Positions 1-8,355 of a stretch of 64,000 bases of DNA are shown piece by piece. The notes under the pieces are model-generated. The model had not been told where the DNA came from. It ran no database searches and worked only from the letters and a program-made list of their open reading frames with translations. Made by a program: the position numbers and the translations under genes. Position 1 is the first letter of the stretch. The number at the start of each line of letters is the position of its first letter. The stretch comes from a virus. The DNA lies in the IMG/VR virus record IMGVR_UViG_3300009408_000002, positions 12,916-76,915 of that record; one strand, given 5' to 3'.

Positions 1-2
1 AG

Positions 3-5413: not shown

Positions 5414-8355
5414 TTGTATTTCAGGAGCAGTTTCTCAAGTTCCCGCTGAAAGATCCGACAGATTTCGTTCTCCAGTCGCATGTGCGAGGAAAATCCAACC
5501 ACATGGATTTTAGATTTGCTATTGACGGCAAAACTCTCGCTGGCTACACTCTCGTTGGAGTTGATGGGCTGAGTCGTGAGCCAGCAAACCTGGCTGAGGC
5601 GAAGAAGCTCATCAAGCCGGGTATCGAAATAGCTCTGAACCGTCTATCGGATCATTCAGGAAAAACCCGCGCAGAGCCGAAATCGACCCAGCCTACGATA
5701 TGGCTCAGGATCGGAGATCGGGAGTTCGCTCCCGGAGAGATCGGGGCCACGAAGAACAAGAAGGGCTGGATCATAACGCTGGAAAAAGCGAAGCTGAAGT
5801 TCGGCGCACAACTGAATGACTTCCACGAATACTGGGTCCAGGGCAGCAAGATCAAGGGAAGATTCCTCTTCCGACAGCTTGCCCAGAAAACAATGCGACC
5901 GTCTGGCGAAGATGCGCCGCCAGGAGAAGTCTTCTTCTGGAATGCATGGTTCGCAAAGTCACAGGTCCCGTTCGTCCTGTCCAAGCGTGCAGTTGATGAG
6001 CCCTACATCTCGCCGCGAGGAAGTTCTGCGCTCCCGGATGAGATCGAGAAACTCGTCCCCGAGAGATTCCGATATTGGAAGTTCAGCTCTGAGTCCAAGC
6101 GGCGTGCCGTGCGAGATGAACTGCGTGAGGCAATCAAGAGCAACGATGTGCCAATTGAGATATCGTTTTCTCAAGACGATCCACTCGAAGAGTTCGAGGC
6201 CACAAAACCGGGTCCTGGGCGGTTCTCTCTGCAGCGAAGAATCTTTCGCGGCCCTATCCAAGTTCGCGTTGGCCCAACCCGCCAGATCTTCGATCTCCGA
6301 ATCGCACTGGACAACGAAACACAGGCGCGTCATTTCGTCCTTGATCAAGATCCGCGCAAGAACTTCAAGTTGTCAGCGACACTTGAGGCCGCCACTGGCA
6401 AGGACAAGCTTGAGATCGGTCGAGGCGGGACCAAGAGAGTCGAACCGGGTACACGTCTCAATCCCAGCAAGAACACCCCCGCGTTTGTCGAGTTGCTCGA
6501 CTCGGGGCCTGTCCGCCTGGCCAATGATTCGGGCATGGTCAAGATCTTTCGCTTTTCAGGGAAAACGCTCAATGCCCAGTTGGTATTCACTAGGCAGGGC
6601 AAGACGAACGTATTCGGAGTTGCGCGAAGCAACGCCAGCAAGAAAGGTGACTCGATGACAGACCCCAGCATGAGGGGGCACGGACCATATCCGTACAAGT
6701 CTCCGTACCCCTATCCTGCCGTCGCGAAGAAGGCCGCAGGGTCCAGTCCATACCCATACCCAACAACGGGAGATGGAAGCAGCAAGGTGATCAAGGTGAT
6801 CGCTCGCCTGCTAGGACTCTCGGCTGTATCGGACGCTGACAAGGACAGGCTCAAGGCAATCCGCGACCGTGCGGGAAAGGGACAGCTTTCACCACGAGAC
6901 ATCGCGTTCGTCTCGGCGCTCCGCAAGAAGATGGGCATCAGCCTGTCGGATGGGACACCCTTCTCCTTCACTGCCGAGTTTCCTCACTATCCATATGACA
7001 CCAGCGAGTTTGCTGAGCGCTGTCCCGACCTGCAATGGCCGGTGTCGCTATGTGAGTTTGGCGAGGAGTGCCCCGCTGAAGGATCTGACAGGAAGGCTGC
7101 CTGCGAATGCAAGTTCGCGCAGGAATACGGCTGCCCGATCTTCCTGCAGGACATCACTCCTTGTTCCGCAGAGGAATTCGAGAACGTCTCCAAGATGAAG
7201 GATGATCTTGGCATCGTTGATATGAAGGGGATCGAAATTGCAAGGACAGGTGAGTGGAATGGCATCCGATTCACCGAAAAGGATCTCGAAGAGATCGCAA
7301 GCAATTTCAATGCTCTGAAGGGCGAACTGGATGTTCCGCTCAAGCTGGGCCATCATGAAGAGCAGACGCTCCTGCACAATTCTGGCGAGCTGGCTGCAGG
7401 ATGGGCCGATCGGCTCTATCGCCAGGGAAAGCGGCTGTTTGTCGATGCAAGTTCAGTCCCGAAACAAGTCTCGGAACTGATCAAACGCCGTGCGTTCCGA
7501 AAGATCTCGATGGAGATGTTCAAGGACTTCGTGGATGCTTCTGGCAAGCGCGTAGGCAAGACACTGAAGGCGATCTCGCTGTTGGGATCAAGCACGCCCG
7601 CGATTCGCGGGATGAAAAATCTCGACGACGTACTAGCCCTATACCAGTCGGAACTGGGCGAAGGCGTTGTCCTCATCTGCTGTTCGGAGGATTCGATGGA
7701 CGACAACGAAGAGAAGAAGAAGACCGCCGAGGGCGATCCGAATCCGTCGCAGGATGAGGAAATCGTCAAGCTGCGTGCGGAACTGGAGTCCCGCAAGGGA
7801 GAGCTTGAGGCCCTGAAGTCTCAGCAGGGCGTGCTCACCATGGCGCTCCAGGAGACCAGGATTCAGCGTGCCAAGGACGCAAACGAGTCGGCATACAAGA
7901 AGCTGCTCAGCGAGGGCAAGGTGCTCCCGCGACAGGAGGCTCGATTCAAGCTTCTGCTGGGTGCGATCGATGCGGTTGCGGATTCCGTGAATCCAGAGGG
8001 CATGTTCTTCTCGGAACTGACCTACGACAAGGAAGCGCAGAAATTCGCACTGAAGACTGGCGTGGGCGAGGACGGAAAGGATCAGTTCAGCCATGAGACG
8101 CTGAAGGATCTGTTCGTCAACTTTGTTGCGGACCTGGAGGATCAGGTCGATCTCAATGACAAGACGCACGACATGGATCCAGACGGCAATCGCAAGATCG
8201 AGAGCATCTCGACTGGCAGTGCTGGCGATCAACTGGAGAAGCTCGCGCAGGAGTTGATCACCAAGGACGACAAGCTGGACTACGGAGAGGCACTAGCCCG
8301 CGCTTCGCGGCAGATGGTGGAGAGCGGCATCGACATCAAGCTGCTCAATTCGTAA
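5410..8355 (+). CDS. LigD-type phosphoesterase domains (x2) fused to Mu gpI-like prohead protease and scaffold
   Basis: N-term 'FVLQSHVRGKSNHMDFRF' (QxH..HxDxR); second copy 'FSLQRR...FDLRI'; protease 'IEIARTGEW...PLKLGH...AAGW...RKISME...LLGSSTPAIRGM'; coiled-coil C-terminus; directly upstream of capsid genes. Confidence 0.85.
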   Translation: MIVFQEQFLKFPLKDPTDFVLQSHVRGKSNHMDFRFAIDGKTLAGYTLVGVDGLSREPANLAEAKKLIKPGIEIALNRLSDHSGKTRAEPKSTQPTIWLRIGDREFAPGEIGATKNKKGWIITLEKAKLKFGAQLNDFHEYWVQGSKIKGRFLFRQLAQKTMRPSGEDAPPGEVFFWNAWFAKSQVPFVLSKRAVDEPYISPRGSSALPDEIEKLVPERFRYWKFSSESKRRAVRDELREAIKSNDVPIEISFSQDDPLEEFEATKPGPGRFSLQRRIFRGPIQVRVGPTRQIFDLRIALDNETQARHFVLDQDPRKNFKLSATLEAATGKDKLEIGRGGTKRVEPGTRLNPSKNTPAFVELLDSGPVRLANDSGMVKIFRFSGKTLNAQLVFTRQGKTNVFGVARSNASKKGDSMTDPSMRGHGPYPYKSPYPYPAVAKKAAGSSPYPYPTTGDGSSKVIKVIARLLGLSAVSDADKDRLKAIRDRAGKGQLSPRDIAFVSALRKKMGISLSDGTPFSFTAEFPHYPYDTSEFAERCPDLQWPVSLCEFGEECPAEGSDRKAACECKFAQEYGCPIFLQDITPCSAEEFENVSKMKDDLGIVDMKGIEIARTGEWNGIRFTEKDLEEIASNFNALKGELDVPLKLGHHEEQTLLHNSGELAAGWADRLYRQGKRLFVDASSVPKQVSELIKRRAFRKISMEMFKDFVDASGKRVGKTLKAISLLGSSTPAIRGMKNLDDVLALYQSELGEGVVLICCSEDSMDDNEEKKKTAEGDPNPSQDEEIVKLRAELESRKGELEALKSQQGVLTMALQETRIQRAKDANESAYKKLLSEGKVLPRQEARFKLLLGAIDAVADSVNPEGMFFSELTYDKEAQKFALKTGVGEDGKDQFSHETLKDLFVNFVADLEDQVDLNDKTHDMDPDGNRKIESISTGSAGDQLEKLAQELITKDDKLDYGEALARASRQMVESGIDIKLLNS

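Follow-up and report, generated by a model that had tools for sequence, protein, structure and literature searches.

The head-assembly module of a tailed virus known from metagenomic sequence encodes, split over two genes, what appears to be a set of enzymes for healing and sealing DNA ends. The stretch analysed here (the window, 64,000 nucleotides) spans bases 12,916 to 76,915 of IMGVR_UViG_3300009408_000002, a linear IMG/VR virus record of 76,915 bases estimated to be 58% complete. The two genes code for P0001, in which putative nucleotidyltransferase (NTase) domains precede an ATP-dependent DNA ligase, and for P0002, in which phosphoesterase (PE) domains of the type found in bacterial LigD are fused to the prohead protease and a scaffold-like tail. 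In the interpretation that we prefer, and to which we assign a probability of roughly 0.55, these enzymes would be loaded into the assembling head, freed there by the protease, injected with the genome and employed in mending the DNA. The steps of this proposal are not equally secure. We are highly confident that the two genes constitute a repair-enzyme set of the head module and belong to a large family of PE-bearing proteins. Encapsidation of the enzymes seems to us somewhat better supported than the scheme as a whole, while their delivery to, and action on, the incoming genome is a tentative proposition, rated a little below even odds. The scheme was outlined in an original prediction made by inspecting the sequence, parts of which are revised below.

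Predicted repair enzymes of the head module

P0002 begins with two domains, PE1 and PE2 (Table 1). Their assignment rests on profile, fold and family evidence because the Pfam LigD_N model (PF13298) misses the window sequence, giving no match at E<=1 and none at E<=10 in six-frame translation. The model comes closer in relatives: seven of 23 stand-alone relatives yield sub-threshold matches, the best scoring 25.6 bits against a cut-off of 31.1, and in the P0007 and P0008 proteins the match covers nearly the whole model across the PE1 region. When a profile built from the 23 relatives was compared with all PDB sequences, the only entries below E 0.01 were LigD PE domains (3p43, 6.7e-4; 3p4h, 2e-3); 3n9b and 2lj6 followed at E ~0.6, level with two unrelated F-box chains. 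An AlphaFold (AF2) model calculated from the same alignment (mean predicted local distance difference test score, pLDDT, 84.6) retrieved LigD PE structures at Foldseek ranks 1 to 7, all with probability 1.00. VIA-align superimposed residues 269-409 of PE2 on 3p43 with a Z score of 16.3 and a root-mean-square deviation of 1.9 over 119 residues; 3p4h (Z 15.8) and 3n9d (Z 13.5) also matched, and the next unrelated fold scored Z 4.1. Since the family profiles of PE1 and PE2 align with each other (hhalign 97%, E 8.6e-11), PE1 can be taken to have the same fold as PE2.

The two domains differ in the state of their active sites. In PE1, residues H24, H31, D33 and R35 are present in 145 of 145 aligned relatives and K91, P95, W98, E140 and R155 are near-invariant; HMMER aligns these four residues, which with Q22 make up the Gln-x-His...His-x-Asp-x-Arg signature, to the site in 3p43, 3p4h and 3n9b. 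The EDHPxxY segment of LigD, whose His84 and Tyr88 we take to be essential in the Pseudomonas aeruginosa enzyme, reads K91-S-T-Q94-P95-T-I-W98 in PE1. The position of His84 is thus occupied by Q94 in the window and by E, Q or rarely H in the family, and that of Tyr88 by an invariant Trp, with the Pro retained. Judging from this pattern, PE1 is a conserved yet divergent PE-superfamily member and is probably active. PE2 has lost both histidines family-wide and varies at its catalytic positions; it is probably a degenerate, non-catalytic copy and may bind nucleic acid. LigD-type PE domains in frame with the prohead protease and scaffold had been anticipated in the original prediction. Fold, profile and reading frame agree with this view, but LigD_N does not recognize the domains and the second of them is degenerate.

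An exhaustive HMMER search with residues 1-420 of P0002, with clustering at 50% identity, returned 868 cluster representatives at E<=0.001, including 181 at E<=1e-30. Domain counts were taken over the 150 best PE-module representatives and a Pfam scan was made over 32 relatives. The same ligase as in P0001 is found in 99 of the 150 representatives and the same NTase-like domain (NT) in 88, within one polypeptide of 850-2300 residues in which the usual order is NT-LIG-PE1-PE2 or NT-PE1-PE2-LIG (LIG, ligase). By these sequence relationships, the gene pair of the window is a split form of one widespread protein. Additional passengers include a D12 adenine methyltransferase (9 of the 32 scanned relatives), a C5 methyltransferase, a uracil-DNA glycosylase, a pyrimidine-dimer-glycosylase-like (Pyr_excise) segment and a recurrent metallo-beta-lactamase-fold hydrolase. 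The fusions provide strong evidence that ligase, NTase-like domain and PE act together, and that they act on DNA.

One might object that PE1 and PE2 are no enzymes at all, but a structural extension of the scaffold and protease, used for DNA binding or spacing, which happens to lie beside an unrelated ligase. The family-wide loss of the catalytic residues of PE2 would fit such a role; PE1 would not, given that its metal- and phosphate-binding residues are kept in every one of the 145 relatives. The covalent union of ligase and PE in 99 of 150 representatives is equally hard to accommodate, and we find this explanation scarcely credible.

The ligase domain of P0001 exceeds the Pfam cut-off by a wide margin and matches the archaeal ligases 2cfm and 3rr5 in the PDB at E ~1e-5. 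In agreement with the intact motifs originally reported, motifs I (K597-F-D-G-I-R), III (LDAELE), IIIa (NLFDII), IV (EGIVAK) and V (WIKFRK) are all in place, and the adenylation lysine K597 and motifs III to V are conserved across ~100 relatives. About 120 residues follow motif V, where an OB domain with motif VI would be expected, and Pfam DNA_ligase_A_C finds no match in them. A structural comparison of the domains with ligases and with LigD PE had been proposed as a check of the original prediction, and both kinds of domain found their counterparts.

NT1, the candidate nucleotide-adding domain, fits the pattern hG[GS]-x9-13-DxD with a third carboxylate on a later strand; among 88 relatives, G126 is present in 87, D137 in all 88 and an Asp or Glu at position 172 in 73. 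Its modelled topology (alpha-beta-alpha-beta-alpha-beta-beta, pLDDT ~80) is that of a minimal pol-beta-type NTase, and in the ESM Atlas it lies near NTP_transf_2/Polbeta clusters (0.90-0.93, TM 0.5-0.7). In the same region, Pfam detects only DUF6932, at an E value (5e-4) below the cut-off; Foldseek places TdT and pol beta in its top rows at E 0.1-2; and the wide VIA list is dominated by the N-terminal helical hairpin. The two repeats are each ~100 residues long and share the motif G-[GS]-x9-D-x-D. Taking motif and model together, NT1 is probably an NTase.

The region of P0001 between NT2 and the ligase (residues 316-560) is matched by none of the 150 family representatives, is lineage-specific and is poorly modelled (pLDDT <50). 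It contains a cysteine cluster just ahead of the ligase that might constitute a zinc or other metal site; a reading of this cluster as an iron-sulfur site of the high-potential type (HiPIP) was considered and set aside, nothing having been found in its support in a segment so lineage-specific and poorly modelled. The helical N-terminus of P0001 (window 2131-2400) recurs in 25 of the 150 relatives. In some of them, including L012 and P0007, the Pfam pyrimidine-dimer glycosylase model aligns weakly with this segment through its C-terminal part; the window's own segment matches only at E 0.11, without the catalytic N-terminus.

A ligase, a PE and an NTase could also be imagined to repair RNA, for instance tRNAs cut by host anticodon nucleases, with the ligase joining RNA, the PE acting on 2',3'-cyclic or 3'-phosphates and the NTase rebuilding 3' ends. 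LigD PE does act on ribonucleotide 3' ends, RNA 3' ends are frequent substrates of minimal NTases, and 4 of the 32 scanned relatives match Pfam RNA_ligase as well. The DNA ligase model, however, fits these proteins far better (1.6e-45 versus 5.3e-7), the fused partners listed above (D12 and C5 methyltransferases, uracil-DNA glycosylase, the pyrimidine-dimer-glycosylase-like segment) are DNA enzymes, and no 5'-kinase domain was seen. We therefore regard RNA repair as quite improbable.

Two features of the passenger domains deserve separate mention. In the L006 locus, two D12 methyltransferase domains (L006:1702-2703 and L006:3613-4422) lie inside one 1627-residue repair polyprotein, one of them between the halves of PE1 and PE2. 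The metallo-beta-lactamase-fold hydrolase (Lactamase_B_2, E 1e-11 to 1e-18) is found N-terminal to, or just upstream of, the repair polyprotein in several relatives, and may be an end-processing nuclease.

Linkage to the capsid and the proposed fate of the enzymes

Downstream of the PE domains, the P0002 frame continues through a linker into the prohead protease, which PHROG profiles recognize (Table 1) and for which Pfam gives no match in this region. Within the linker, a Cys-rich stretch of ~40 residues follows the PYPYP repeats (window 6685-7140) and is conserved in P0005. Two related loci, L011 and L014, encode a stand-alone homologue of the protease, with a weak Mu-like_Pro match (E 0.005), after PE-PE and ahead of the capsid gene. 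The PE-protease-scaffold fusion is present at full length in the orthologues P0004 and P0005 (45-50% identity). Exactly at the junction between the protease and the scaffold-like tail, a perfect GGAGG stands 5 nucleotides ahead of an in-frame ATG at position 7696 (M763; window 7682-7698), and M763 is conserved in P0005. Such an arrangement points to a second, internal site of initiation that would yield the tail by itself, as in the C/Nu3 pair of phage lambda.

Fusion to a protease extends well beyond the window. Pfam recognizes an XkdF-type Peptidase_S78_2 joined to the module in 14 of the 32 relatives, and a local profile detects it in 50 of ~150 representatives; in 48 of these 50 it ends 3-18 residues from the C-terminus. 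In sequence, this enzyme is unrelated to, or very distant from, the Mu-I-like protease of the window, making it a second protease family fused to the module. The union of ligase, NTase-like domain and PE, together with a C-terminal protease in a third of the relatives, argues for a functional unit that would be targeted to the capsid.

A similar picture emerges from gene order. A degenerate DNA pattern for the PE1 peptide DQTPYVLSxRAV identified 18 IMG/VR loci (L005-L022), which were subjected to open reading frame calling, clustering and family scans. They share the order terminase, portal, (MuF), polyprotein, protease/scaffold, capsid, with portal, protease and capsid families that differ. 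Thus L017 has portal, MuF and polyprotein; L005, L010 and L019 have polyprotein, S78 protease and capsid; in L008 and L015 the capsid gene comes two genes after the polyprotein; and L021 has a clear MuF (E 1.3e-9) ahead of the polyprotein. L011 and L014 have one gene each for NT-LIG, PE-PE and a homologue of the window protease, and the capsid gene that comes after them is likewise homologous to that of the window. Conservation of the linkage to head genes had been suggested as a check, and the linkage is indeed retained in these distant relatives. Searches for related loci with P0001, P0002, P0005 and P0058 as queries returned no loci. A PE1-bearing open frame was also noticed in a 346-kb contig (SOJX01000087) of a Planctomycetota metagenome-assembled genome (L023:5443-7956); it may represent a prophage and could connect part of the family with a host.

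Could the enzymes simply be products of a late operon that remain free in the cytoplasm, none of them being packaged, with fusion to the protease reflecting co-expression or a means of releasing PE-PE by self-cleavage? The separate genes of L011 and L014, the separate ligase of the window and the fact that the family is known from genes alone are all compatible with this possibility. Yet it leaves unexplained why 48 of the 50 fused relatives have the protease at their very C-terminus, why a second protease type has been fused to the module in the window, and why the genes keep a constant place between portal/MuF and protease/capsid when the portal, protease and capsid clusters or families vary. 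Moreover, a replicative ligase is already present separately. On balance we consider a purely cytoplasmic role improbable, although less so than RNA repair.

If the enzymes are indeed packaged, the following sequence of events can be envisioned. The protease and scaffold end of P0002 would bind to the inside of the assembling procapsid, pulling PE1-PE2 in, while the scaffold tail would also be produced alone and in excess from the internal start; with such a nested start, the full-length, cargo-bearing protein would be a minor species. P0001 would enter by binding its PE partner or through a signal of its own. The protease would then free the enzymes and remove the scaffold, and the folded enzymes would remain in the head until infection, when they would leave together with the DNA. 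Once in the next host, PE1 would strip 3'-phosphates or 3'-ribonucleotides that block strand ends, NT1 might extend such an end by a nucleotide, and sealing would fall to the ligase. The substrates would be nicks or breaks acquired outside the cell or inflicted by host nucleases, or else the cohesive ends, and mending would take place before phage gene expression; circularization of the genome and repair of restriction or CRISPR cuts, as envisaged in the original prediction, might be among the outcomes. A separate ligase in the non-structural region had been noted in the original prediction and was located in the replication module (Table 1). The two ligases share only 26% identity, and the existence of a replicative enzyme would support a dedicated role for the head ligase.

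The anchoring and synteny data also fit a scheme of genome quality control in which the enzymes, although attached to the procapsid, do their work before the virus leaves the cell that makes it: they would mend nicks, gaps or dirty ends during packaging or just after the terminase cut, to be subsequently degraded or left inert rather than delivered. Nothing in the analysis speaks to ejection, and a pre-adenylylated ligase can seal one nick without free ATP. The fused DNA methyltransferases and the neighbouring MuF and phospholipase A2 (PLA2)-like genes, on the other hand, are better suited to delivered cargo. In addition, a filling capsid leaves little room for repair, and the NT and PE activities would need nucleotides and Mn2+. 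Among the alternatives, action in the producing cell is the one that we take most seriously, although we still judge it unlikely.

Several observations weigh against packaging and injection of a heal-and-seal kit. The PE-module family is known here from genes alone, its sole deposited virus genome being that of the uncultured archaeal virus ANMV-1. P0001 has no protease anchor of its own, and since the corresponding parts are three separate genes in L011 and L014, fusion is not required. Protease-fused cargo at a copy number like that of a scaffold would presumably fill much of the capsid volume, and the remedy offered by a nested start is itself conjectural. Replacement of the His84 equivalent in PE1 means that LigD-like chemistry is not assured. 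The nucleotide-adding component that had been proposed has the motif and topology of the pol-beta type, but no significant match of NT1 to a curated NTase family or solved structure was obtained with Pfam, Foldseek/PDB or VIA. Conservation of a candidate cleavage motif in orthologues was likewise not found. Finally, as originally stated, no Ku gene is recognizable: PF02735 has no match at E<=1 in the 76.9-kb record, which is however only ~58% complete and whose host could supply Ku. Nor did Pfam reveal a LigD-type archaeo-eukaryotic primase polymerase (POL) domain in P0001 or P0002. With neither Ku nor a LigD-type polymerase, a reading in terms of Ku-dependent, NHEJ-like (non-homologous end joining) repair has no support beyond the homology of ligase and PE.

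The cleavage motif just mentioned, SF[SAT][EQDTK], was entertained as a possible release code for the protease. It occurs five times in the 2,760 residues of three head proteins and once in 10,943 residues elsewhere (Fisher p 0.0017), and four of the five copies fall at or between predicted domains. We do not rely on it because it was defined after looking at the sequences and is not conserved in orthologues, being absent from the aligned positions in P0154, P0005 and P0004.

Flanking genes and genome context

The features discussed in this study are listed in Table 1. On the + strand, the head module reads portal-MuF, PLA2-like protein, P0001, two small genes, P0002, a small head protein of 127 residues and the major capsid protein, and open reading frame positions bear out the order originally proposed. 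The portal gene begins upstream of the window, in a 13-kb segment (L003) fetched from the same side. Residues 92-447 of its 882-residue product form the portal domain (Portal_Mu, E 9.1e-19), whereas residues 749-851 match Phage_Mu_F at E 1.7e-3 with 19.5-20.2 bits, below the gathering score of 29.6; the protein as a whole matches phrog_220, "minor head protein and DNA pilot", at E 1.7e-4. The portal half of the proposed portal-MuF fusion is therefore sound, while its C-terminal region is, on this sequence evidence, MuF-like only. The PLA2-like protein, a predicted lipid-cleaving enzyme, could be a further piece of injected cargo. The gene following P0002 had been labelled as that of a decoration protein; it matches a scaffolding PHROG (E 5e-6) and may be either a scaffold or a decoration protein.

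Table 1. Positions of the features discussed. Coordinates refer to the window unless a locus is named; aa, residues.
Feature	Position	Strand	Evidence or remark
Portal-MuF fusion, 3' part	1-1667	+	full gene L003:11934-14582, 882 aa, starts 981 bases before window
PLA2-like protein, 148 aa, CNLHDFRY His-Asp motif	1664-2110	+	Phospholip_A2_3 E 6.1e-5, 24 bits vs cut-off 29.4
P0001, 897 aa: helical N-terminus, NT1, NT2, lineage-specific middle with Cys cluster, ATP-dependent DNA ligase	2131-4824	+	
NT1, aa 91-205, minimal pol-beta-type NTase-like; G126-G127...D137-I-D139...D172	2401-2745	+	
NT2, aa 206-315, second NTase-like repeat; GG...NDLD kept, third carboxylate lost	2746-3075	+	sequence; phmmer matches in 79 relatives
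Cys cluster C-x2-C-x13-C-x12-C, aa 478-508	3562-3654	+	sequence
Ligase domain, aa 561-897	3811-4821	+	Pfam DNA_ligase_A_M E 1e-16, 61.7 bits vs cut-off 26.2
127-aa protein, one hydrophobic helix and coiled coil	4821-5204	+	weak tape-measure PHROG match, E 6.5e-4
70-aa protein; stop overlaps P0002 start	5201-5413	+	open reading frame
P0002, 981 aa: PE1, PE2, Pro/Tyr- and Cys-rich linker, prohead protease, scaffold-like tail	5410-8355	+	open frame continuous
PE1, aa 1-255, LigD-PE-like; Q22, H24, H31, D33, R35; inserted helix aa 61-80	5410-6174	+	
PE2, aa 266-411, PE fold, both metal-binding His gone	6205-6642	+	
Linker, aa 412-599, PYPYP repeats	6643-7206	+	conserved in P0005
Prohead (head maturation) protease, aa 600-760	7207-7689	+	phrog_976 E 2.7e-28, phrog_3894 E 1.9e-19
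Scaffold-like coiled-coil tail, aa 763-981	7696-8355	+	
127-aa small head protein, scaffold or decoration	8398-8781	+	phrog_673 "head scaffolding protein" E 5e-6
Major capsid protein	8804-9730	+	phrog_1005 E 4e-35; homologous to L011 capsid gene
Second ATP-dependent DNA ligase, 626 aa, replicative three-domain type, replication module	44545-46425	-	DNA_ligase_A_M E 8.3e-28, DNA_ligase_A_C E 0.03
Metallo-beta-lactamase-fold hydrolase	L009:8990-9650		Lactamase_B_2
Metallo-beta-lactamase-fold hydrolase	L018:7996-8600		Lactamase_B_2
Metallo-beta-lactamase-fold hydrolase	L020:1609-2250		Lactamase_B_2
Metallo-beta-lactamase-fold hydrolase	L016:1315-2406		Lactamase_B_2

The record is that of a tailed virus. 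A large terminase of the T4 family (TerL) is encoded just before the portal gene (L003:10341-11822; tblastn E ~1e-19 against annotated terminases), and elsewhere in the window we found genes for a tape-measure protein, RecT, a DnaG-zinc-ribbon/Toprim/D5 primase-helicase, an SNF2 helicase, a RecA-like ATPase, ParB and glycosyltransferases. The host is probably a bacterium, because the structural genes are preceded by Shine-Dalgarno sites and the genome encodes a bacterial-type DnaG zinc ribbon/Toprim and RecT. The RecT recombinase gene adjoins that of the primase-helicase (window 30369-34196), and a glycosyltransferase cluster that includes a glycosyltransferase-methyltransferase fusion lies mid-genome (window 36752-40454). 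No DNA polymerase was detected among the 20 large window open reading frames scanned with Pfam. Megablast of the region against GenBank phages gave no match, and a BFVD search returned a single viral protein.

Relation to known systems and implications

The architecture described here recalls the polyvalent proteins of phages and conjugative elements (Iyer, Burroughs, Anand, de Souza and Aravind 2017; PMC5512222), in which an assemblin-like peptidase, if present, is always C-terminal and was proposed to carry out processing during virion assembly. As in those proteins, several unrelated enzymes are combined in one multidomain chain encoded among virion genes with portal and MuF, DNA methyltransferases are common passengers, and packaging and delivery along with the DNA are predicted, in the present case from genes. 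The peptidase is likewise C-terminal in 48 of 50 XkdF bearers; in the window only the scaffold-like tail follows the protease. What sets the present family apart is a coherent heal-and-seal cargo, divided here between two genes; the survey of Iyer et al. mentions neither ATP-dependent DNA ligase nor LigD-type phosphoesterase as cargo (PMC5512222).

The family also resembles bacterial LigD, the NHEJ ligase of POL-PE-LIG composition that works with Ku. In most relatives an ATP-dependent ligase, a PE with the His-His-Asp-Arg set and a nucleotide-adding domain share one polypeptide, as they do in LigD. However, the nucleotide-adding domain of the family is a pol-beta-type NTase-like unit of ~100 residues instead of an archaeo-eukaryotic primase-polymerase; the PE is duplicated, with one copy dead, and has Gln or Glu in place of His84 and Trp in place of Tyr88; and the genes are viral, sit in a head module, include a fusion to the capsid protease and come without any Ku found in the record. 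As predicted from sequence, the system would work like a LigD-type heal-and-seal apparatus, yet its polymerase type and the His84 segment set it apart from LigD proper, and no Ku was found in the record, which is estimated to be 58% complete.

Nested protease-scaffold genes are a familiar phage device, exemplified by lambda C/Nu3 and by the I/Z pair of phage Mu. As in the lambda pair, protease and scaffold share one frame in the window, with a likely internal scaffold start (GGAGG-ATG at 7696). In the case of HK97, the C-terminus of the protease was reportedly identified by Duda et al. in 2013 as a capsid-targeting signal that can bring a passenger into proheads. None of these proteases carries an enzyme passenger, in contrast to P0002, where PE folds occupying ~420 residues precede the protease. 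Head-loaded proteins that are processed and then injected, to shield the genome or to initiate its expression, are represented by T4 Alt and internal proteins, P1 DarB and the N4 virion RNA polymerase; a similar fate is proposed here from genes only, and none of those proteins is a DNA ligase or an end-healing enzyme. Targeting would also differ, relying on covalent fusion to protease and scaffold instead of the N-terminal capsid-targeting sequence used in T4.

A functional parallel is also found outside prokaryotes. African swine fever virus and Cafeteria roenbergensis virus reportedly package base-excision repair enzymes that serve to mend the incoming genome, including a pol-beta-family enzyme of small size, a 3'-end-cleaning enzyme and an ATP-dependent ligase. 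Both are giant viruses of eukaryotes whose capsids are unrelated and whose repair proteins are separate and unfused, and only at the level of the ligase and NTase superfamilies is there homology with the present set.

ANMV-1 (KP703175) is alone among 50,697 deposited phage records in carrying the module, which makes it the sole deposited virus record with a fused ligase-PE1-PE2 arrangement like that of the family to which the window belongs. Its 866-residue "ATP-dependent DNA ligase" matches the PE module of the window at tblastn E 5e-40 and the ligase at E 4e-18. ANMV-1 differs from the window in being archaeal, in having this protein annotated as a ligase only and devoid of protease fusion, and in the layout of the neighbourhood. 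No relevant account of a packaged phage ligase or PE came up in literature searches, and a preprint on Asgard viruses gives a "ligD" ligase merely as a replication gene. Whereas the general design is already known from polyvalent and capsid-module cargo proteins, we found no description of this particular cargo. The family has escaped experiment because, despite its 868 clusters, it is nearly absent from cultured phages.

In its broadest form, the proposal would be that hundreds of uncultured tailed viruses of bacteria and archaea carry a complete, capsid-borne and injected strand-break repair machine, comprising end cleaning, nucleotide addition and ligation and loaded by way of the capsid protease or scaffold, as a general means against host nucleases (restriction, CRISPR) and environmental damage. 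So general a statement is doubtful at present, more so than delivery in the virus studied here. If the enzymes are packaged and injected, they would amount to an unrecognized form of phage counter-defence, in which the virus would repair cuts and damage in its DNA as soon as this enters the cell, ahead of all gene expression. This would bear on our understanding of the efficiency of restriction and CRISPR and of the infective lifetime of virions in sediments and soils. It would also provide a prokaryotic-virus counterpart of the repair enzymes in giant-virus virions, and an NHEJ-independent relative of LigD. The family is, in addition, a source of compact ligases and end-healing enzymes, including a divergent PE site in which a catalytic His is replaced, and it may offer a natural tag for loading protein cargo into capsids.

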